Below are positions 322-10,723 of a stretch of 24,289 bases of DNA, piece after piece (the stretch's first letter is position 1; each line of letters begins with the position of its first letter). This DNA comes from Burkholderiales bacterium (lineage in GTDB: Bacteria > Pseudomonadota > Gammaproteobacteria > Burkholderiales > UBA6910): positions 1-24,289 of the forward strand of contig DASTHR010000209.1 in assembly GCA_035718105.1 (NCBI GenBank), in the 5' to 3' direction. The position numbers were made by a program, and so were the translations under genes. A model generated the notes under the pieces. It saw only the letters and a list, made by a program, of their open reading frames with translations. It had not been told where the DNA came from and did no database searches.

Positions 322-1023
322 TTACTCCACGGATTCCATCATCCAGAAGGGATGGTGGCTCTTGAGCATCGTACGCTGTTCCTTGCTGAGGACGGCGTCG
401 ATCCTGCCCTGGGCGTCGAGGCCGGCCTCCACCATCTGCAGGCGAAGTTCGCCGAGGCGCTTGTAGGACGCGAGAATCGCCGCCTTCTCCTGCTTGTCGG
501 CCAGGTAAAGGTCGCGCAGCTTTACCTGCTCGTCCATCATGCGGCCCTTCACCTCGTGGTGCTTCTTCCGCAGTTCATCCTGGATCCTGAGGATCTTGCC
601 GTCCTGCTCGGGCGTGAGGTCCATGTGGCTGAGGGGACCAGTGACGTGCAGCGGAACATCGATGCCGCGCGGGCGCATGCCGCCCATCGCACCGCCCTTC
701 ATCCCGCCGCCCATGCCTCCCATCATCCCGCCCTTCATCCCGCCGCCCTTGCCACCCATGCCGCCGCCTTTGCCACCCATCATGCCGCAGCCCATGCCGC
801 CGCCCATGTCGTGGTCCATGCCGCCCATGCCGCCGCCCTGCTTCATTCCCATGGGGGATGGGCCCGGGCCGGGCTTCGCGGCGGGTGCTTGCGCAGGGGC
901 GCTGTGCATCATGTGCTGGGAGTGGTCCATCTCCTGCCCGGGGGCCTGCTGGGCCAGCGCGGCGGGCGCGATGCCGGCCAGTGCCAGGGCCGCAGCGAGA
1001 GTGCTCATTTTCAGGTGTCTCAC
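322..1023 (-). CDS. Spy/CpxP/ZraP-like periplasmic protein with a long Met/Gly-rich N-terminal tract
   Basis: GTG start at 1023 behind AAAGGAG; signal peptide (ALA-QQ); GGGM repeats; C-terminal helical domain with LTPEQ and LSKEQR (LTxxQ-type) motifs. Confidence 0.8.
   Translation of the reverse strand: MRHLKMSTLAAALALAGIAPAALAQQAPGQEMDHSQHMMHSAPAQAPAAKPGPGPSPMGMKQGGGMGGMDHDMGGGMGCGMMGGKGGGMGGKGGGMKGGMMGGMGGGMKGGAMGGMRPRGIDVPLHVTGPLSHMDLTPEQDGKILRIQDELRKKHHEVKGRMMDEQVKLRDLYLADKQEKAAILASYKRLGELRLQMVEAGLDAQGRIDAVLSKEQRTMLKSHHPFWMMESVE
692..748. repeat. Intragenic 21-bp exact direct repeat within the GGGM-coding tract
   Basis: ccgcccttcatcccgccgccc at 692-712 and 728-748 (36-nt period), embedded in further degenerate gccgcccatg units. 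Confidence 0.85.
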
Positions 1024-1036
1024 GGGTGTTCTCCTT

Positions 1037-1363
1037 TCACGGAAGTGGTTTGATCTGCGTGACATAGAAATCGATCCTGCTTTCCTGAACGATGGTGATC
1101 TCCACCTTCTGCCCGGGTTTGATGTCCTTCAGGATAGCCTTGTCCTTCACCTGGAAGTCCATGGTCATGGCAGGCCAGTTGAGGCTGGGGATGGGCCCGT
1201 GGCTCATGTTGAATTTTCCGGCGGCAGCATCGACCTTGAGCACGGTACCCTCGCCCTTGTGGGTGGCGGCCTTCTGGACCAGGTGCACCGCTTCTTTCCC
1301 GGCCACCACGGCGCCGGGAAATCCCAGCGCCAGCACTGCGGCGATTAACAGTTGGGATTTCAT
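1037..1363 (-). CDS. cusF: CusF-family periplasmic Cu(I)/Ag(I) metallochaperone
   Basis: C-terminal 108 aa of track ORF 1037..2509; ATG at 1363; signal peptide; SHGPIPSLNWPAMTMDF carries the CusF His/Trp/Met/Met site. Confidence 0.92.
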   Translation of the reverse strand: MKSQLLIAAVLALGFPGAVVAGKEAVHLVQKAATHKGEGTVLKVDAAAGKFNMSHGPIPSLNWPAMTMDFQVKDKAILKDIKPGQKVEITIVQESRIDFYVTQIKPLP

Positions 1364-1377
1364 GAATTGTTCCCTTC

Positions 1378-1869
1378 TCAGTGGGTTGTTGACTGCGATT
1401 CGATCTGTTGCCAGCGCGCGTACGCCTCGTCCGACCACAGCGACTTGATATAGGCCACCACGTCGTCGATCTCGCGCTCGTTGAGCTTTCCTGCCCATGC
1501 CGGCATGTTGCCCATGCCCGGCGGACTTCCCTTGCGGATCACCCGGCGCAGCACTTCGGTGGGGTGATGCCAGGCGTGGGCGCTGTCGTCCAGGGGCGGA
1601 GGCGGATATTTGCCGTCCGGCCCCGTCTTGCGCCAGTCGCCCGGAAGCCCTGCGCCACGAGGGCCGTGGCATTCCGCGCAGTGGGCGTTGTAGACGGTTT
1701 CGCCGCGGGCGATCGAAGTTGGATCCAGGCCACGTGCCGCGTCCTTGCTTGCGGGTGCCGGTGCTGCGGACGGGGCCTGCCCGCGTTCGCCGCAAGCTGC
1801 CACCAGGAGCGCCGCCAACACCAGGGCGAACATGGGGCTGCTTGGCCGAAATATCATTCTTTGAGTCAT
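1378..1869 (-). CDS. Monoheme c-type cytochrome, probable lipoprotein
   Basis: CAECH heme motif, PPPLDDSAHAWHH, distal MGNMPAW; lipobox-like LVAAC; GAGG RBS before ATG 1869. Confidence 0.88.
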   Translation of the reverse strand: MTQRMIFRPSSPMFALVLAALLVAACGERGQAPSAAPAPASKDAARGLDPTSIARGETVYNAHCAECHGPRGAGLPGDWRKTGPDGKYPPPPLDDSAHAWHHPTEVLRRVIRKGSPPGMGNMPAWAGKLNEREIDDVVAYIKSLWSDEAYARWQQIESQSTTH

Positions 1870-2025
1870 GGTTCGAGCGCGTTCCTCGTAATTGGCGATG
1901 CCGCCGGGAAATCTGCTGCCGACCAAATTCTGGTGGAGTTTTCGGGCGCGGCATGACCGCCGGGGCGGGCCGCGCGTGGGAGCGGGCTGCATGCGCCCGA
2001 GCAGGACGCACTGACCCCAGGGGGC

Positions 2026-2376
2026 TCAGCCTAGGGGCGGCCGCCTGGGCTGGTCGGGGAGGAACCCGTCGGGATGGTGTGTGAGGCGGGTGACGAAGCC
2101 GGAAGCCGTCGCCCTTCCGGCGGCGGCGTTCGCGGACGACAGGGCGAAGACGTTGCAGAGATGGCAGACGGTGCAGTCGCCACAGATCTGCTTGGCGCTC
2201 CCGGAGCTGTCGTGCTCCGGGTGCGCGTCGCCATGATGCCCTTGATGAGCGTCCACCTGGGCGATAGCGTCCGGCGCCGCATGCTGGCAGAACGCCATCG
2301 TGGCCGCGGCGATACCCTGCAAGGGCAGCCCGGCCAAAGCCAGCAATACCAGAAGAAACCTGAGGGATTTCAGCAT
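2026..2376 (-). CDS. CopL/CzcI/DUF2946-like Cys/His leader protein, copy 1
   Basis: Hydrophobic N-terminus, GLPLQGIAAATMAFCQH, His-rich linker, CGDCTVCHLC, C-terminal DGFLPDQPRRPPLG; clear paralog at 10339-10689. Confidence 0.78.
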   Translation of the reverse strand: MLKSLRFLLVLLALAGLPLQGIAAATMAFCQHAAPDAIAQVDAHQGHHGDAHPEHDSSGSAKQICGDCTVCHLCNVFALSSANAAAGRATASGFVTRLTHHPDGFLPDQPRRPPLG

Positions 2377-2385
2377 GCCGCCAAT

Positions 2386-2415
2386 AGTATAGGAGCGCGC
2401 GCTGCGATGCCGCAA
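2386..2415 (-). promoter_or_regulatory. sigma70-type promoter TTGCGG-N18-TATACT, near-leaderless
   Basis: -10 at 2386-2391 is 9 nt upstream of ATG 2376; -35 at 2410-2415; no SD in between. Confidence 0.6.
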
Positions 2416-2438
2416 GCGGCCTTGCATCCGCGGATTGG

Positions 2439-3119
2439 TCAGCTGCCATTAGGGAAATCCTCGTCCTGCCTGTCGAGGCCGGCGGCATTCGAGCGCAGGC
2501 GCGGGACAAGACCGGGAACCCCGGCGGCGTATAGGGAATATGCGTTGCCGAACTCGGCAGTCAACTCCTGTTCCTCGCGCCCCGCCAGCCTCGCATACAT
2601 GCTCGCCAGGACCGGGAACATGATGACGGTAAGGATCGTGGGCCATTGCAGCAGGAAGCCGAACATGATCAGCACGAAGGCGGCGTACTGCGGGTGCCGA
2701 AGGTGGGCATAGGGGCCGGTCGTGGCGAGGGCATGGCGCCGGCGGGCGTGATAGAGCACCCTCCAGGCCCTGGCAAGGAGAATGAACCCGCCGACGATTA
2801 ACAGGTTGCTCAGGAGGTGGAAGGGGCCGAAGTGGGGATTCCCTCGCCAGCCCAGCAACGTCTCCAGAAGATGGCCCGCATCGTGGGACAGGAAATCCAC
2901 CTCGGGGTAGCGGCTCTGCAGCCAGCCCGAAAGCAGGTAGACGGTGAGGGGAAACCCGTACATCTCGGTGAATAGCGCCACCAGGAAGGCAGAGAACGCA
3001 CCGAAGCTGCGCCAGTCGCGGGACGTCTTCGGCCGATAGAAGCTGAAGGCGAAGATGATGAACACCAGGGAATTGATGATCACCAGCGGCCATAGTCCGT
3101 AAGCGGGCGCGGCGTCCAT
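2439..3119 (-). CDS. Isoprenylcysteine carboxyl methyltransferase (ICMT/PEMT)-family membrane protein
   Basis: Multiple TM segments; LATTGPYAHLRHPQY and REE motifs; the YGFPLT-type N-terminus is typical of copper-cluster members; AGGA RBS. Confidence 0.85.
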   Translation of the reverse strand: MDAAPAYGLWPLVIINSLVFIIFAFSFYRPKTSRDWRSFGAFSAFLVALFTEMYGFPLTVYLLSGWLQSRYPEVDFLSHDAGHLLETLLGWRGNPHFGPFHLLSNLLIVGGFILLARAWRVLYHARRRHALATTGPYAHLRHPQYAAFVLIMFGFLLQWPTILTVIMFPVLASMYARLAGREEQELTAEFGNAYSLYAAGVPGLVPRLRSNAAGLDRQDEDFPNGS

Positions 3120-3121
3120 TC

Positions 3122-3412
3122 CTATTCCTTTCCGGATTCCGGTTGTTCCCCGTTACGGCGCGCGTGTTCCGCGGAAGTGCCGGCCGAACGATGTCCACGA
3201 TGGCTGCCGCGCCCGCCGTGGCCGTGGAGCAGGTGCATTAGCGGGCAGGCGAGAAGGAGCAGATAGGGTAGCCAGCCGTACAAGTGCGCGCGGTGCTCGA
3301 CGATCAGGAAGAAGCCCGCTATCGCCAGGAAACCGATCAGGATCCACTTGCCCGCCGCAGACGAGCCGTCGTTGCCGCGGCTCTCATGGTCATGTTGGTG
3401 CTCGGCCGTCAT
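3122..3412 (-). CDS. DUF2933-family small membrane protein
   Basis: EHRAHLYGWLPYLLLLACPLMHLLHGHGG signature; His-rich N-terminus. Alternative start at 3424. Confidence 0.85.
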   Translation of the reverse strand: MTAEHQHDHESRGNDGSSAAGKWILIGFLAIAGFFLIVEHRAHLYGWLPYLLLLACPLMHLLHGHGGRGSHRGHRSAGTSAEHARRNGEQPESGKE

Positions 3413-3461
3413 GGTGGTCCCCATCGTTCTCGTGCAAACCGGCCTCGGAAGTCCCTCCCGC

Positions 3462-4124
3462 TCATGTGGGCTTGACGGCGCGCCAGAAACTCAACAGTCC
3501 CCACCACCGGCCCGTCGCACGGCCCTGAGCGAAGCCGGCGCTCTCGACGAAGGCCGGAACCTCGCCCCGCAGGTTGCCGGCGGTCATGGGCAGGAACAGA
3601 AACGGCCATGCCACCAGCCACCAAAGCAAATTGGCCGGCCGGTCCACGTCCACCAGCACCAGCTTGCCGCCGGGAACCAGCACCCGCAGCACTTCCCTGA
3701 GCCCCTCGCCCTTCGTCGCCGGAGGCAGGTGGTGAAACATGAGGCTGGAAAGCACGACATCGAAGCTCGCATCGGGAAAAGGCAGCTTCTCAATGGCTGC
3801 GAGGCGGAATTCGACCGGGTCTGCCCCAGCGCGGGCATTCTCCCGTGCCCGGGCAATCATGACGGGCCCCGGATCAATTCCGACCACGACACCCTGCGGA
3901 CCTACCGCCCTGCGGGCAACCCGGGTGAGAACCCCCGTGCCGCAGCCGACGTCGAGCACCCGGTCTCCGGGCTCGAGCCCGGCATGTTGCAGCGTCACCT
4001 CGCGGAAGTGACTGCCAAGTCCGATCGCGCTGCAATAGCGGTCGTACACGGGGGCGAGCCAATCGAGGAGCATGCCGCGAGTGCGCGGGGACGATTCCTG
4101 GGGATGGGTGTGCGCTTCGGACAC
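3462..4124 (-). CDS. Class I SAM-dependent methyltransferase
   Basis: VLDVGCGTG motif I, GIDP, LPFPDASFDVVLSS, LRVLVPGG; GTG start. Confidence 0.9.
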   Translation of the reverse strand: MSEAHTHPQESSPRTRGMLLDWLAPVYDRYCSAIGLGSHFREVTLQHAGLEPGDRVLDVGCGTGVLTRVARRAVGPQGVVVGIDPGPVMIARARENARAGADPVEFRLAAIEKLPFPDASFDVVLSSLMFHHLPPATKGEGLREVLRVLVPGGKLVLVDVDRPANLLWWLVAWPFLFLPMTAGNLRGEVPAFVESAGFAQGRATGRWWGLLSFWRAVKPT

Positions 4125-4152
4125 GGGGCGGCCGGAAATCCAATAAATCAGA

Positions 4153-6474
4153 TCAGAGCGTGACGCGGTTCAGGCGCAGGGCGTTGGCCACTACGGAAAC
4201 CGAGCTGAAGCTCATGGCGGCGGCTGCAATGATGGGCGAGAGCAGCAGGCCGAGGAATGGATACAGCATGCCCGCGGCCACCGGAATGCCCAGCACGTTG
4301 TAGATGAAGGCGAAGAACAGGTTCTCCCGGATGTTGCGCATGGTGGCCCGGCTCAGGCGACGCGCCCGCAGGATTCCCCGCAGGTCGCCCTTCACCAGCG
4401 TTACGCCGGCGCTTTCCATGGCCTCATCGGTGCCGGTGCCCATGGCGATGCCCACCTGGGCCTGCGCCAGGGCAGGGGCGTCGTTGATGCCGTCGCCCGC
4501 CATGGCGACGACACGGCCTTCGGCCTGAAGTTGCCTCACCACTTCTACCTTCTGCTCGGGAAGCACTTCGGCGATCACCCGGTCGATCCCGAGCTTCCTG
4601 GCCACAGCCTCGGCGGTGAGCCGGCTGTCACCGGTCAGCATTACCACCCGCACGCGCTCTTCATGCAGCGCACGGATGACCTCGGGGGTGCTGTCCTTGA
4701 CCGGATCCGCCACCCCGAGCAGGCCGGCCACCCGGTCCTCCAGGGCCACGAACATGACGGTCTGTCCCTCGGCCCTCAGCGTCCCTGCACGCTGCGCCAG
4801 TTCGCCGGGATCAATCCGCAGGACTTCCAGAAGCTTGGCGTTGCCGATGGCCACCCGGCGCCCCTCGACCATGCCGGCGACTCCCTTGCCGGTGAACGAC
4901 TCGAACTCCGATACCGGGAGCAGGGGGCGTTGCCGCTCCTCCGCCCCGGCCACGATCGCGGCGGCCAGGGGATGCTCGCTCGCCCGTTCCAGGCTCGCGC
5001 CGAACTGCAGGATTTCGTCCTCGCGGAAGCCGGGCGCCGCCTGCGCCGTGACCAGCCTTGGTTTGCCCAGGGTCAGGGTGCCGGTCTTGTCCACCACCAC
5101 AGTGTCCACCCTTTCCATGACCTCCAGGGCCTCGGCGTTCCTGACCAGGACTCCGGCCGTTGCGCCGCGCCCGGTTCCCACCATGATGGACATCGGCGTC
5201 GCGAGCCCCAGAGCGCAGGGGCAGGCGATGATCAGCACCGACACTGCATTGATGACGGCGTGGGCGAGGCGTGGCTCCGGCCCCCAGACACCCCACACGA
5301 CGAACGCGACCGCCGCGATCGCGACCACGGTGGGAACGAAATATCCGGACACCACGTCCACCAGGCGCTGGATCGGCGCCCGGGAGCGCTGCGCTTCGCT
5401 CACCATGCGCACGATCTGCGCCAGAAGCGTGTCGGCGCCGACCCGCTCGGCCCGCATCAGCAGGCTGCCGGTGCCGTTCACGGTGGCGCCGATCAGTCGC
5501 TCTCCCTGGTGCTTCTCCACCGGGATCGGCTCACCGGTCACCATGGATTCGTCCACGGAACTGGCTCCCCGGATGACCACCCCGTCCACCGGCACCTTTT
5601 CGCCGGGTCGCACCCGCAGCATGTCGCCGCGCTGCACTTCACCCAGGGGGATGTCTTCTTCGCGGCCATCGTCACGGACGATGCGAGCAGTCTTCGGGGC
5701 GAGGCCCAGGAGCATCCTGATGGCCGCGCTGGTGCGGCTGCGGGCCTTCAGTTCCAGCACCTGTCCCAGCAGCACCAGGGCGGTGATCACCGCCGCGGCC
5801 TCGAAGTAGAGGGGCACCAGGCCCTCCGGGCTGCGCAGGCTGGCCGGGAAGGCGCCGGGCAGCAGCAGCCCCACGGCGCTGTAGGCCCAGGCGACCCCCA
5901 CGCCCAGGGCGATGAGGCTGAACATGTTGAGGCTGCGGTTGACCAGGGACTGCCAGCCGCGCAGGAAGATCGGCCACCCGCCCCAAAGCACTACGGGTGT
6001 GGCCAGCACAAACGCGACCCATTGCAGCCCCCGGGGGGACAGGAGACGGGCGGTGACGTCGGGCGCCAGATCCGACACGGTTGCCATGACGAATACCGGC
6101 AGCGCCAGCGCGGCGCTCACCCGGAACCGCCGCGTCATTTCTGTGAGTTCGGCGCTTTCCGCTTCCTCGGCGGTGACGGTCCTTGGCTCCAGCGCCATGC
6201 CGCAGATGGGGCAGTTCCCGGGCGAGTCGCGGACGATTTCCGGGTGCATGGGGCAGACGTACTCCGTGCGAACGGCGGGCGCAGGCGATTCGGGCTCGAG
6301 CGCCATGCCGCATTTCGGGCAGCTACCCGGGCCCGGCTGCCGCACCTCGCGATGCATGGGGCAGGTGTACATCCCCGACTCGCGTCCGGCCGGAACCTCG
6401 GGCGGCGGGTTGCCGGTGACGCCGGGAACCCGCCCCTCCGGGGACCTCTTACTTGTGGAACTTCTGGTGCTCAT
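4153..6474 (-). CDS. copA: P1B-1 Cu(I)/Ag(I)-translocating P-type ATPase with two N-terminal CPMH...CPxCGM domains
   Basis: [29 protein letters not shown] and MSFSS motifs. Start uncertain (ATG 6474 overlaps the upstream stop; ATG 6372 is an alternative). Confidence 0.95.
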
Positions 6475-6781
6475 GGGCCGGGGCGTTGGGAGCTTCCGAG
6501 GTTTCCGGCGGCTTGGCGGCTGGTCCGGTCTCCACCCCGCTCTTGTGGAAGGAAGCGTGGTCGTGGGGCTTCGGCTTCTTCGTCCCGGCGCCCTTTTTCG
6601 GCGCCGACTGCTTGTCGCCCTCCGTCCCCGGGTCGGCGGCCGTGGACTTGTCGGGCAGGGTCTTTTCGGCCGACGTGCCTGCCTTCGGGGGCGTTGCCTT
6701 GTCGTCGGCGGCGGTGGCCGCCACGACGCCCGACAGTGCGGCGACAATGGCCGCGAGCACTGCAGTTCTTGCGTACGTCAT
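6449..6781 (-). CDS. Small secreted low-complexity protein with two HxHxxFHK motifs
   Basis: AAAAGGAG RBS, ATG 6781, Ala-rich signal peptide, motifs HDHASFHK and HEHQKFHK. Confidence 0.75.
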
Positions 6782-6913
6782 GGTTCTCTCCTTTTCGTCA
6801 GCTAATGGATGATGTTTCCGCGCCTTTGTGGCGCATGATCGTCCGACGGGGTCGCCTCTGGCGGTCCCACCGGGGGTTGCGGATCTCCATATCGAGTTTC
6901 TGAACATTTCTCG

Positions 6914-8428
6914 TCACCCTCGCTCCTGTGGCGGCGTGGCTGGGATCGAGACCGGCAGCCGGATGGAAAAGCGCGCTCCGGCGCCGGGAGTGCTTGCCAC
7001 GCTGACGGTGCCCCGGTGGAGCTCGATCACGCGCTTGACGAAGGCGAGCCCCAGTCCGGCTCCCGCGTGCCGGTGGGAGCTGCCATTCCGGCCTCGAAAG
7101 AAGCGCTCGAAGATATGCGGCAGGTCTTCGGGGGCGATGCCGCTGCCGGTGTCCTCCACCGTCAGCTCGATCTGCCCGTCGCCCGGTTCCGCGGCGATCA
7201 CGATCCGGCCGCCGGACGGGGTGTGGCGCAGCGCGTTCTCGATGAGGTTGTCTAGGACCCGTTCCAGCAAGGTCAGATCTGCCGCCAGCAGCGGGAGCTT
7301 GCGGGGCATTTCCACCCGCAGCGCGACGCCCTTGCGGGACGCCGACGGGTCGAATTTCTGGACCACGTCTTGGGCCAGGTCAGCCACGCTGAAGCGTTCC
7401 GGGTTGAGCCTGGCCTGCCGCGACTCCAGCTTGGCCAGGTCGAACAGGGCGTTGACCAGCGCGCCCAGGCGCTCCGCCTGCTGGACCGCAACCTCCGCGT
7501 AGCGCCTGCGATCCGCGTCGGGCAGGCAGTCGTACTTGAGCAACAGCGTTTCCAGATAGCCCTGCACGGACGCCAGCGGCGTGCGCAGGTCGTGGGAGAT
7601 GGATGCAAACATGTCCCGCAATTCGGCATCGGCGCTGCGCAGGTCTTCCATTTGGGAGCGGATTCGCGCCGCCATCCGTTCGAAGGTCTTGCCGATGTGC
7701 GCCACCTCGTCGTCGGCACGCTCTGGGATTGCCGGCATCGGGGACTCGGCGAAATTCGACGCCTGGAAGCGCTCCATGGCCTCCGACAGGCGGCGCAGTG
7801 GCCGGGTGATGACCGCGATGACGGCGAGCCCCGCGAGGAGGGAGAGCAGGACCCCGGCCGCCGTCAGCATGGCGGCCTCCCGCAGGGCGTAGCTCTGCCG
7901 GAGGTCTTCGGCCACTGCCCGATGGCCCGCGTCGCTGGCGTGATCGGAGCCGTGAAGCACCGCGTAGAGATACGAGGCACCGCCCCCGGAAACCCTGGCC
8001 GCGGAGAAGACCGCTCCCCGGCCATGGGCGGTGGGATCGTCGCCGCGCAGAGGAAATTCCCGGCTGCCGTTGAGCAGGCGCTCGATCGGCTCCAGGCGCA
8101 ACTGGGGGCGGATGATCCGCTCCGGCGGAACCGAGGACGCCACCACGCGCCCTGTGCCATCCAGTAGATACAGATCCACGCTGGGATTCACCCGCGTCAG
8201 CTCGCGCAGCCGGGATGCGATGTCGCCCGGCCCATCGGAGCTTGCGGGCAGGGTGTCGAGGCGGCCCTCAACCACGAGCTGCCGCGCCAGGGAGGCGTTC
8301 AGCTTCTGCACCAGTTCCCGGTGGTATTTCTCGTGGGAGATATTCATCACCACCGTGAACATCAGGGTGACGACGCCGGTAAAGGCGACCAGCAGCACGG
8401 TCAGCTTTCTGTAGAGGGTGTTGAGCAT
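6914..8428 (-). CDS. HAMP-domain sensor histidine kinase
   Basis: Two TM segments, HAMP, H-box SHDLRTPL, NLIENALRH, EDTGSGI, GAGLGL; start overlaps the regulator's 3' end. Confidence 0.92.
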   Translation of the reverse strand: MLNTLYRKLTVLLVAFTGVVTLMFTVVMNISHEKYHRELVQKLNASLARQLVVEGRLDTLPASSDGPGDIASRLRELTRVNPSVDLYLLDGTGRVVASSVPPERIIRPQLRLEPIERLLNGSREFPLRGDDPTAHGRGAVFSAARVSGGGASYLYAVLHGSDHASDAGHRAVAEDLRQSYALREAAMLTAAGVLLSLLAGLAVIAVITRPLRRLSEAMERFQASNFAESPMPAIPERADDEVAHIGKTFERMAARIRSQMEDLRSADAELRDMFASISHDLRTPLASVQGYLETLLLKYDCLPDADRRRYAEVAVQQAERLGALVNALFDLAKLESRQARLNPERFSVADLAQDVVQKFDPSASRKGVALRVEMPRKLPLLAADLTLLERVLDNLIENALRHTPSGGRIVIAAEPGDGQIELTVEDTGSGIAPEDLPHIFERFFRGRNGSSHRHAGAGLGLAFVKRVIELHRGTVSVASTPGAGARFSIRLPVSIPATPPQERG

Positions 8429-9132
8429 TCGCCGCTGTCCGCGAGCTTGTAGCCCACGCCCCAGACGGTGAGGATCCGCCGCGGTTCGGCGGGATCGTCC
8501 TCGATCTTGGCGCGCAGGTTGTTGATGTGGGAACTCACCGTATGCTCGTATCCACTGTGGGTGTAGCCCCACACGGCATCCAGCAGTTGGGCACGGGAGA
8601 ACACCCGCCCCGGGCTGCGGGCGAAGTGCAGCAACAGGTCGAATTCCCGCGCGGTGAGTTCGACGGGGCGACCGGCGAGGGTTACCTCGCGCCGGCTGGG
8701 GTCGATCACCATGCCGGCGACGCTCAGGGTTCCCGGCCCCGCCCCGCCGGGCGCGCTGGCAAAGGATTCGGCTCGCCGGAAGAGCGCCTTCACCCTTGCG
8801 CGCAATTCCGCCATGCTGAAGGGCTTGGTGAGGTAATCGTCGGCGCCGATCTCCAGCCCCAGCACCCGGTCGATCTCGCCGGAGCGCGCAGTGAGCATCA
8901 GGATGGGGGAGTGAATCCTCTCGCTGCGCAGCGTGCGGCAGATCTCGAGGCCGTCCAGCCCCGGCAGGGCAAGGTCCAGAACGATCAGGTCGAACCCCCC
9001 GCTGCGCGCTTTCTCCAGTGCGCCCGGCCCGTCCGCCGCGACCCGGACCTCGCACCCCAGGTCCTCCAGGTGCAGCCTGACCAGGTCTGCGATTTCGTGC
9101 TCGTCCTCCACCACCAGAACCTTCCGCGTCAT
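8401..9132 (-). CDS. OmpR-family response regulator
   Basis: VVEDE, DLIVLD, DDYLTKPF receiver motifs; winged-helix end RILTVWGVGYKL. Confidence 0.94.
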   Translation of the reverse strand: MTRKVLVVEDEHEIADLVRLHLEDLGCEVRVAADGPGALEKARSGGFDLIVLDLALPGLDGLEICRTLRSERIHSPILMLTARSGEIDRVLGLEIGADDYLTKPFSMAELRARVKALFRRAESFASAPGGAGPGTLSVAGMVIDPSRREVTLAGRPVELTAREFDLLLHFARSPGRVFSRAQLLDAVWGYTHSGYEHTVSSHINNLRAKIEDDPAEPRRILTVWGVGYKLADSGECSTPSTES

Positions 9133-9221
9133 GGGAATGTCGCCCGCCGGGTTTCTAGAGACGGTATCCTCGCTGGCGTATCCGGTTACCGGACCGGTTC
9201 GCGCGCCGTTCATTTCTCGCC

Positions 9222-9473
9222 TCAATACTCATGGATCAGGATGTCCCTGAGGGCATCGGGTCGTCCTTCCACCACGCTGGCCCAGCGTTCAACGCCGGTT
9301 TCCCGCGGGGGAGTGAAAGTCTCGCCATGATCACAGTGCAGGCGCCATCGCCGCATTAGGACTTTCAGGCAGTGCGCGAAGGGGATGTCCTCGGGCCGGG
9401 CACGGGCCGCCGCGGACAGGAACCGGCAGCTGCACTGGTGGCCGTGTGGAATTGTCTCGTAAACGCAATGCAT
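9222..9473 (-). CDS. Possible 83-aa Cys/His-rich hypothetical protein
   Basis: GAGG 6 nt before ATG 9473; fills the gap in a co-oriented cluster; codon usage is less biased than neighbours. Confidence 0.4.
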   Translation of the reverse strand: MHCVYETIPHGHQCSCRFLSAAARARPEDIPFAHCLKVLMRRWRLHCDHGETFTPPRETGVERWASVVEGRPDALRDILIHEY

Positions 9474-9553
9474 GCATCGCCTCGCCGGGACTGTCCGCAC
9501 CCGCTTCAAAGGGCCGGCTCCGGCCGATCAAGTCTGCGGGAGCCGGCGGTGCG

Positions 9554-9952
9554 TCAGCATGTGTAGCTGTAACCATCCGACTGGTGAATCTGCTTCAGGA
9601 AGGGGTCGCACACCTTGGGGGCGGGTGCGGCCGCCGGGGTGGGGGAGGGTTTCTCCACGTACCTGCCTTTGGCGGCAGCCTCCTGCTTCATCATTTCGTG
9701 GTCCGGGTTGGGGCTGGCGCCGTCCGTGATCTCTCGTTCGTGGTCCCAATACGTTCCGGGTGCTCTCTGGTCCCCGCGCACTCCCGTTGCGGTCCTGGGT
9801 GCCGCAGCATGGGGAGTGGAGGGCGTGTAGCCGTCCGTCAACTCGAGCTGGTGCCACAGCGCATCGTGGGACCGCGCGAGCGGCGCGAAGCCAAGAAGCA
9901 GGGCGGCGGCCGCGGCCGTGGCCACTGCGGTTCCGATATTGCGGTTGGTCAT
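9554..9952 (-). CDS. Secreted 132-aa protein with three (Q/E)xxx(T/S)DG repeats
   Basis: AAGGAG RBS, ATG 9952, signal peptide, internal repeats LWHQLELTDGY / WDHEREITDGA / FLKQIHQSDGY. Confidence 0.75.
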   Translation of the reverse strand: MTNRNIGTAVATAAAAALLLGFAPLARSHDALWHQLELTDGYTPSTPHAAAPRTATGVRGDQRAPGTYWDHEREITDGASPNPDHEMMKQEAAAKGRYVEKPSPTPAAAPAPKVCDPFLKQIHQSDGYSYTC

Positions 9953-10338
9953 GATCATCTCCTTGAACAGTGGTCGGAAATCTCTGCCGTCCGGGACGCA
10001 TTTGCGGCCCGTTACGCGATTCCAGTATCGAGCGCCGCCTTCAAGCACTGTTCAGGGAAAGTTAAAGAATCGTTCCAGACGCGTTACCCGAGCAATTTCT
10101 CGGAGCGGGCGCCTGCGATACGCAAACCGCAGCTCCGGGTTCGATCCGGGGACGCGATCGGGAACACTTGCTGCTCGGGACTCCGCCATTAGGGGCAAAT
10201 CCTGCCTGCGCCGACACCAAGTGGCGCGATGGTTCCGGGGAACCGGCTAGGCGGCTGGACCGGCCACGAGCGACCGGATATTGGCGCGATGGTCAGGAGC
10301 GCCAGCCACCCGCCGGAGGCAGATCCGGCGTCATAGGG

Positions 10339-10689
10339 CTAGGCTAATGGCGGCCGCTTCGGCAGGTCCGGCACAAACCCGTCAGACTGGTGTACCGGGC
10401 GAGCGACCTGAACGGCTGCCACGAGGGACGGTGTCACGCTGCGAACACCGGGGAGGGCATGGGCGCTGCAAAGGTGGCATTGGTTGCAATCCTTGCAGGT
10501 TTCGCCGGCAGACAGCGTCGGGTCACCGGTGCGGGAGTCCGCAAAATCCGCGCGGGAATCCGGCGCCAGCTGAGTGGGGGTATGCCCGCCGTCGTGCCCG
10601 CACCAAGCCATGGTGACGGCGGAGAACGCCTGCAGTGGCATGCCGGCAAGACCCAGACACAGCAGCAGTGTTTTCAAGAAATGCCGCAT
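10339..10689 (-). CDS. CopL/CzcI/DUF2946-like Cys/His leader protein, copy 2
   Basis: GMPLQAFSAVTMAWCGH, CKDCNQCHLC, C-terminal DGFVPDLPKRPPLA; paralog of 2026-2376. Confidence 0.78.
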   Translation of the reverse strand: MRHFLKTLLLCLGLAGMPLQAFSAVTMAWCGHDGGHTPTQLAPDSRADFADSRTGDPTLSAGETCKDCNQCHLCSAHALPGVRSVTPSLVAAVQVARPVHQSDGFVPDLPKRPPLA

Positions 10690-10695
10690 GGGCAA

Positions 10696-10723
10696 AGTAT
10701 AGTTCGCCCGCGGACGTGGGCAA
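10696..10723 (-). promoter_or_regulatory. sigma70-type promoter TTGCCC-N16-TATACT, leaderless
   Basis: -10 at 10696-10701 lies 6 nt upstream of ATG 10689; no SD. Confidence 0.6.

Follow-up and report, generated by a model that had tools for sequence, protein, structure and literature searches.

Two paralogous Cys/His-rich leader open reading frames with Pro-Pro tails as candidate CutF-like leader peptides in a Burkholderiales copper cluster

The 24,289-nucleotide (nt) contig DASTHR010000209.1 of a Burkholderiales bacterium (GenBank assembly GCA_035718105.1; the whole stretch is called the window below) carries a copper cluster in which two short minus-strand open reading frames (ORFs), here named ORF 1 and ORF 2, encode small proteins with a putative signal peptide, a Cys/His motif and a C-terminal RPPL (Table 1). 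Our analysis of these ORFs and of their homologues favors CutF-like leader peptides translated from leaderless mRNA, in which a metal-prolonged ribosomal pause near the stop codon would be read out by Rho-dependent attenuation, and a probability of about 0.6 is given to this reading. As judged from their sequences, both ORFs are new members of the known CutF/CruR/CopL/CzcI leader-peptide class, with no new mechanism. An earlier note on this DNA had proposed them as metal-sensing, ribosome-arresting leaders. This was right in kind, as both encode putatively exported Cys/His leaders with a conserved Pro-Pro tail and with CutF-like rules and geometry, but the analogy with RAPP-type arrest, the claimed novelty and formal membership of an established family did not hold.

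Translation of the minus strand gave two products of 116 amino acids (aa), and the common architecture already described for them was recovered in coordinates, strand, motifs and paralogy. They share 39% identity (BLASTP expect value (E) 4e-21), a likeness not due to chance that makes them true paralogues. Both N-termini display a basic n-region, a Leu-rich core, an (L/M)PLQ motif and an AxA site (A23-A25 and A21-A24 in the two ORFs); these signal peptides were judged by eye, and AlphaFold predicted a helix at residues 2-29, in the same region. C30 and H32 are found just past the predicted cleavage site in both proteins, followed by a His/Asp-rich linker and by a Cys cluster (CGDCTVCHLC and CKDCNQCHLC) that conforms to CxDCxxCHLC at residues 65-74 in each. 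The distance from this cluster to Pro-Pro (P113-P114) is 41 residues in both. The C-terminal ends before the stop codon, ...DGFLPDQPRRPPLG and ...DGFVPDLPKRPPLA, share the tail DGF(L/V)PD(Q/L)P(R/K)RPPL(G/A). No stable fold was predicted by AlphaFold (mean predicted local distance difference test (pLDDT) score 64.9, predicted template modelling score 0.26), the signal-peptide helix and one other helix being the only elements; the local pLDDT of the tail was high (81-90).

The two ORFs belong to a large family. With ORF 2 as query, exhaustive phmmer retrieved 46 cluster representatives (E<=1e-3), which with few exceptions aligned end to end. A profile search brought the number of clusters to at least 502 (E<=1e-5), the vast majority being annotated as hypothetical and devoid of any Pfam domain. 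Among 201 genomes sampled from the same order, one or more members occurred in 96. In an alignment of 51 sequences, C30 and P113 were invariant and P18, Q20, C68, C71, P107 and P114 were conserved in at least 90%, while the sequence linking Cys cluster and tail was free to vary. The conserved Arg is the residue directly before Pro-Pro (xRPP), the preceding position being occupied by Q, K, R, E or H across the family. A constant ruler was found in a set of 36 members: the last Cys is separated from Pro-Pro by 37-41 residues in 28 of the 32 members that could be scored (exactly 38 or 41 in 21 of them), and Pro-Pro lies 2-5 residues before the stop codon in 28 of the 33 members having it. Among 11 homologues, the tail residues R, P, P and L were each encoded by three to four synonymous codons without any change of amino acid, suggesting selection on the peptide. 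It is worth noting that the c-region of the signal peptide (LPLQ, residues 17-20 of ORF 1) is unusual, the conservation of P18 and Q20 being equal to that of the metal and Pro motifs.

Besides ORFs 1 and 2, two further members were found in the same genome, which is 77% complete. The third paralogue (contig C249:4787-5164, also present as L003:1495-1884, minus strand) is His-rich and Cys-free, ends with ...DWPPAARV and is located 102 nt before an outer-membrane efflux gene. The fourth copy (C152:4-132) is cut by a contig end. A sister subfamily fetched by its tail pattern (loci L045, L046, L048, L050 and L053) displays the layout LCHG...HLCCH...PDPLHDLFFPDQPQRPPLA and spacers of about 100-115 nt. 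For three of these loci (L045, L048 and L050), the last codon, the stop codon and the post-stop bases can base-pair with GAGGA, the Shine-Dalgarno sequence of the gene that follows. This predicted pairing is apparently a compact CutF-type switch, and it points to the end of the ORF as a control point in the family.

A predicted sigma-70-like promoter directly precedes each leader ORF (Table 1), that of ORF 1 lying inside the gap left by the upstream ICMT-like gene, and no Shine-Dalgarno sequence was found before either ORF. Promoters so near the ATG, together with the missing Shine-Dalgarno sequence, predict a leaderless mRNA in both cases. The same geometry recurs in the family: a TAnnnT hexamer 6-10 nt before the ATG was found in 27 of the 36 members (loci L005, L007, L009 and L015-L037 among those scored) versus 0.7% of background ATGs, a count whose p-value is inflated by the non-independence of relatives, even though the members stem from many genera. 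A Shine-Dalgarno sequence was present in only two of the 36. Likewise, the mapped start site of czcI2 of Cupriavidus metallidurans is located at the start codon (PMC10127602). The statement that each ORF is the first of its transcription block was thus partially sustained, each having its own promoter, but same-strand genes end close upstream (62 nt for the ICMT-like gene before ORF 1, 173 nt for the LuxR-type regulator before ORF 2) and read-through is possible.

The upstream ATG at 2427 was considered as a start for ORF 1 and rejected. Where gene calls in homologues include an N-terminal 'extension', its differences from ORF 1 are confined to codon positions 1 and 2, a sign of conserved non-coding DNA; moreover, the signal peptide begins at M1 and the -10 box falls inside the extension. 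Gene callers often add such a false extension through the -10 box in this family. No shared operator-like repeat was seen by eye upstream of the two promoters, and a MerR-type promoter is unlikely given promoter spacers of 16-18 nt without dyad.

The closest prototype is CutF of Rhodobacter capsulatus, the Sec-exported leader of cutFOG (PMC8456105; PMC9973294 / bioRxiv 2022.11.11.516240; bioRxiv 2025.02.05.636593). Its CxxxC motif and C-terminal PPP mediate a copper-induced stalling, sensitive to elongation factor P (EF-P), that frees the cutO ribosome-binding site (bioRxiv 2025.02.05.636593, PMC8456105), and the exported protein is rapidly degraded. Neither CutF nor CopL, both with a Pro-Pro tail, complements in trans. 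CutF-like proteins are delimited by rules (Ozturk et al. 2021/2023), and Ozturk et al. reported 5,334 of them, including CopL, CusD, SilD and CruR, most being upstream of copper or efflux genes. Both ORFs fall within these rules: they are shorter than 150 aa, carry a predicted N-terminal Sec-type signal peptide and a central Cys/His motif, have Pro-Pro within the last 15 residues and are followed on the same strand by a gene in a metal context, the cluster comprising CusF, a copper ATPase and a two-component system.

The geometry of the ORFs also agrees with that of CutF (118 aa versus 116 aa, with a Sec signal peptide in both) when mature numbering is applied, CutF being compared through its published layout and signal peptides of 28 residues (CutF) and 25 residues (ORFs) being assumed. 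The first mature Cys is Cys5 in all of them, the Cys cluster is located at 41/45 in CutF and at 40-49 in the ORFs, and PPP at 86-88 corresponds to Pro-Pro at 88-89, with two residues left before the stop in both cases. Further common points are a PExP-like run before the Pro repeat, a poorly structured product and a position at the head of copper-detoxification genes. However, CxxxC and PPP are replaced by CxxCxxCxxC and RPP; the short spacer of CutF, with a stem-loop over the cutO ribosome-binding site, contrasts with spacers of 156 and 386 nt; and the CutF target is a multicopper oxidase, whereas the ORFs precede a cytochrome c-CusF-LTXXQ set and a secreted protein of no known family. CopL of Xanthomonas/Stenotrophomonas, counted among CutF-like proteins, is likewise a Cys/His-rich leader ORF, needed in cis for the copper-induced expression of copAB, but no copAB (multicopper oxidase) genes are present downstream of the ORFs. 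The idea put forward in the earlier note is thus present in the literature (CutF, CruR, CopL). The note had also inferred control of resistance rather than uptake genes; this is not new either, as CutF (cutO), CopL (copAB) and the CusD/SilD-type members already cover it.

The search against hidden Markov models (HMMs) of CopL, CzcI and DUF2946 that had been suggested gave only matches below threshold, and formal membership of these families was not obtained. NCBIfam CopL_fam (NF033807, cut-off 40) scored 17 bits with ORF 1, did not match ORF 2 and was matched by 12 of the 51 members. Pfam DUF2946 (PF11162, gathering cut-off 23.7) gave 17.9 bits (E 5e-3) with ORF 1, no match with ORF 2, weak matches with 19 of the 51 members and no match in the genome of origin. 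The best link was to CzcI (NF045614, cut-off 100), with 35.9 bits for ORF 1 (E 1e-8), 23.2 bits for ORF 2 and matches in 41 of the 51 members (best E 1e-28). CzcI and CzcI2 of C. metallidurans resemble the ORFs as small exported proteins placed before metal-efflux genes, as is the third paralogue mentioned above, and as products of a constitutive RpoD promoter, with the leaderless start mapped for czcI2 (PMC10127602). They differ by the absence of a Pro-Pro tail (bioRxiv 2022.11.11.516240).

Comparison with CruR (Bp2923, DUF2946) of Bordetella pertussis bears on the read-out. CruR combines CXXC and RAPP motifs, whose fixed spacing matters for regulation, with a 162-nt spacer and a C>G bubble, and controls a TonB-dependent receptor through copper-relieved stalling and Rho-dependent termination (PMC9426467); it is likewise predicted to be poorly structured. 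The ORFs share with it the leader position, a CXXC motif, a C-terminal xxPP two to three residues before the stop, the fixed motif spacing, a long G+C-rich spacer (156 nt after ORF 1), the C>G bubble at the ORF 3' end and, in the model favored here, a Rho-dependent read-out. The definition of DUF2946/CruR (CXXC and RAPP about 45 residues apart) did not apply: CXXC is present but the tail reads RRPP or KRPP, and the distance is 36 residues (C74 to R111), or 39 from C71, instead of 45. Moreover, the CruR transcript starts 45 nt upstream of the ORF, whereas leaderless starts are predicted here, and copper relieves the stall before an uptake receptor in CruR, whereas the targets of the ORFs are of the resistance type, from which an opposite polarity is expected.

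The analogy with RAPP-type arrest (ApdA, ApdP, SecM-like) failed. Mutagenesis of ApdA/ApdP has shown that the Arg is irreplaceable and that the Ala tolerates only Gly and, in part, Ser, Asp or Pro (PMC12992588), whereas the tails read R-R-P-P in ORF 1 and K-R-P-P in ORF 2, with Arg at the Ala position in both and Lys at the Arg position in ORF 2. The tail is therefore best described as a putative CutF-type xRPP polyproline pause. A strong, EF-P-resistant intrinsic arrest of RAPP/SecM type, released by the pulling force of export and turning the ORFs into secretion monitors with a variant motif, is consequently very improbable. The signal peptide and R/K-R-P-P near the stop would agree with it, as would the use of RAPP by a DUF2946 protein, CruR; besides the mutagenesis data, the variation among Q, K, R, E and H at the position equivalent to the RAPP Arg and the nature of the downstream genes (metal genes, not Sec or YidC components) argue against it.

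The long G+C-rich spacers noticed earlier after both ORFs were confirmed (156 nt after ORF 1, 386 nt after ORF 2). No intrinsic terminator was detected in either by a terminator scan. Rfam returned only tRNA for the whole window at gathering thresholds and no match for the ORF 2 spacer at E<=1, which indicates no riboswitch or known leader. A hairpin begins 8 nt after the ORF 1 stop, without a following U-tract; its pairing is kept in 86.7% of cells over seven homologues, compared with 32-46% when the pairing is slid. Its 3' arm (1993-2000) has an alternative 8-bp partner at 1942-1949. Conservation with the spacer of homologue L044 extends over the first 60 nt or so downstream of ORF 2. Further downstream, the 3' arm of a stem-loop masks AAGG within the Shine-Dalgarno sequence of the gene starting at 9952, and this may be a separate translational control element. 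Finally, 86-97% of members, depending on the scoring window, display a C>G skew of +0.2 to +0.38 across the 3'-terminal 100 nt of the ORF, and in the case of ORF 1 it extends into the spacer.

From these features we infer metal binding, pausing, polarity and an involvement of Rho as follows. Transcription from the own, probably constitutive sigma-70 promoter would yield a leaderless mRNA, the first ribosome following close behind RNA polymerase, and the nascent chain would be targeted for export. C30/H32 and the CxxCxxCxxC cluster, 41 residues before Pro-Pro, would bind Cu(I), possibly Ag, and the bound metal would lengthen a pause at R112-P113-P114 (two codons ahead of the stop) that would otherwise be weak and sensitive to EF-P. 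The parked ribosome would deny Rho access to the C-rich ORF 3' end and to the spacer, so that in the presence of metal transcription would continue into cytochrome c-CusF-LTXXQ (ORF 1) or the 132-aa protein gene (ORF 2); without metal, the ribosome would terminate, Rho would load and downstream expression would be attenuated. Such a combination of CutF-like polarity with a CruR-like read-out is preferred because the spacers are long, devoid of intrinsic terminators and CruR-like, and because melting of a downstream structure by the ribosome is expected to need a short spacer. A more specific version, doubtful in our view, holds that leaderless mRNA, fixed 41-residue ruler and xRPP pause form a single three-part unit: translation would begin as soon as the 5' end emerges from RNA polymerase, with the lead ribosome physically coupled to the polymerase, and a pause stabilized by metal, two codons from the stop, would choose between Rho termination and read-through over the unusually long spacers. 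The unit would then be a Cu-ON counterpart of the Cu-OFF CruR, with leaderlessness as a requirement.

Several observations weigh against Rho-coupled leader peptides. Covariation in the ORF 1 hairpin was not above that of shuffles, leaving a conserved sequence and hairpin rather than a proven structure, and the folding of the whole spacers was no better than that of shuffles (z -0.71 and -0.77). The spacers, G+C-rich and predicted to be highly structured, are not ideal for Rho, and Pro, Gln and Ala codons account for most of the C>G skew. The stem covering the Shine-Dalgarno sequence lies about 280 nt from the ORF 2 stop, where a stalled ribosome cannot open it directly. As the tail is not of the strong RAPP type, the pause may be weak. 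Lastly, P18, Q20 and C30/H32 match the tail in conservation, a pattern also compatible with a function of the exported protein, and CzcI has been described as a mature periplasmic protein damping the CzcCBA pump (PMC10127602).

These last points lead to the main rival explanation, according to which the ORFs encode CzcI-like mature periplasmic metal-binding proteins acting in trans, which would, for example, damp or tune efflux and chaperone systems nearby or hand metal over to the sensor kinase; the RPP tail would be a protein-protein contact and the position at the operon front would reflect co-expression only. The CzcI link given by the HMMs, the reported quenching of CzcCBA, the signal peptide with the conserved Cys/His of the mature N-terminus and the high pLDDT of the tail are all consistent with it. 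We nevertheless consider it improbable: Pro-Pro, absent from CzcI and CzcI2 (bioRxiv 2022.11.11.516240), is invariant in the ORF family and keeps a fixed distance to the Cys cluster on one side and to the stop codon on the other, with a variable sequence in between, no compact fold is predicted, the Pro-Pro-tailed CutF and CopL fail to complement in trans, and the stop codon is immediately succeeded by a conserved element in the RNA. Another possibility, somewhat unlikely but less so, keeps the leader peptides and dispenses with Rho. In this CutF-type translational control, the paused or terminating ribosome would remodel the spacer RNA and free the next Shine-Dalgarno sequence, in line with the stop-region pairing of the sister subfamily, the alternative partner of the ORF 1 hairpin, the complementarity of GUUCCUC (codons 104-106 of ORF 1) to GAGGAAC before the cytochrome c start and the sequestration of the Shine-Dalgarno sequence of the 9952 gene by a 13-nt stem. 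However, a ribosome would be expected to melt RNA directly only where the spacer is short, unlike the 156 and 386 nt found here, the short pairings of ORF 1 are missing in some homologues, and the ORF 2 stem is remote from the stop codon. The Rho-coupled leader peptide thus remains the preferred reading.

If it is true, two natural test cases would be added to a field in which only two prototypes, CutF and CruR, have been studied, and these diverge in polarity and in the parts assigned to EF-P and the signal peptide. New with respect to both would be the long spacers, the xRPP tail in place of PPP or RAPP, the cytochrome c-CusF-LTXXQ targets and the predicted leaderless start. Leaderless geometry and the Cys-to-Pro-Pro ruler might throw light on the way in which a nascent chain signals metal status. 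The points of interest are modest: a leaderless start predicted across the family, a ruler of constant length, long spacers and new downstream modules. Regarding annotation, the clade is missed by Pfam and NCBIfam thresholds, and its start codons are often called too far upstream.

Table 1. Leader ORFs, associated predicted signals and neighboring genes in the window
Feature	Position	Strand	Remarks
Leader ORF 1 (P0001, 116 aa)	2026..2376	-	signal peptide about 1-25, C30/H32, C65xxC68xxC71xxC74, tail PDQPRRPPLG
Leader ORF 2 (P0002, 116 aa)	10339..10689	-	architecture as ORF 1; tail PDLPKRPPLA
Predicted promoter, ORF 1	2386..2415	-	TTGCGG 2415-2410, 18 nt, TATACT 2391-2386, 9 nt to ATG
Predicted promoter, ORF 2	10696..10723	-	TTGCCC 10723-10718, 16 nt, TATACT 10701-10696, 6 nt to ATG
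Spacer between ORF 1 and cytochrome c gene	1870..2025	-	156 nt, C-rich, G-poor; next ATG 1869
Spacer after ORF 2	9953..10338	-	386 nt; next ATG 9952
Conserved hairpin, 8 nt after ORF 1 stop	1984..2017	-	no U-tract after
Stem-loop before the 9952 gene	9960..10058	-	13-nt arms (10046-10058 with 9960-9972), 12/13 paired, 73-nt loop
LuxR-type response regulator	11546-10863	-	upstream of ORF 2
Secreted 132-aa protein, first gene after ORF 2	9554..9952	-	no known family
OmpR-type response regulator	9132-8401	-	start at 9132
Histidine kinase	about 8410-6914	-	start probably near 8410
Copper-type P1B ATPase	6747-4153	-	TIGR01511, 597 bits versus cut-off 397
Cytochrome c lipoprotein-like gene, first after ORF 1	1378..1869	-	same order in L039
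CusF-family periplasmic copper-binding protein	1037..1363	-	Pfam CusF_Ec, E 4e-26
LTXXQ (Spy/CpxP-like) periplasmic protein	322..1065	-	true start probably slightly downstream of 1065

The assignment of the region to a copper cluster was upheld by the copper-type P1B ATPase, CusF, and the OmpR-type regulator with its histidine kinase (Table 1). On the minus strand, the ATPase gene is followed by genes for an S-adenosylmethionine (SAM) methyltransferase, a DUF2933 protein and the ICMT-like methyltransferase, then by ORF 1. The gene order methyltransferase-DUF2933-ICMT-leader-spacer-cytochrome c-CusF-LTXXQ is found again in metagenome contigs that are independent, suggesting that ORF 1 heads a conserved periplasmic copper module. 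In one of them (L039), ICMT, the leader, a spacer of about 150-195 nt, cytochrome c, CusF and LTXXQ are followed by DUF411, CusC and CusB; a second contig matches only up to LTXXQ.

The 132-aa protein encoded after ORF 2 matched neither Pfam nor NCBIfam. It displays repeated (E/Q)x(T/S)DG(Y/A) motifs and two C-terminal Cys, and its gene is separated by a gap of about 420 nt from the OmpR-type regulator. Next to ORF 2 homologues elsewhere, the following gene encodes an efflux protein or a different, 146-aa exported protein (P0055/P0056 family). This family had no Pfam match, and tblastn with P0055 and P0056 against the window detected no remnant in the 386-nt spacer.

Two listed ORFs of the cluster were misleading. 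The 713-aa ORF of the histidine kinase is an over-extension, the OmpR-type regulator occupying another frame there. The CusF gene was concealed in a spurious 490-aa ORF (1037-2509) and was recognized only once it had been excised.

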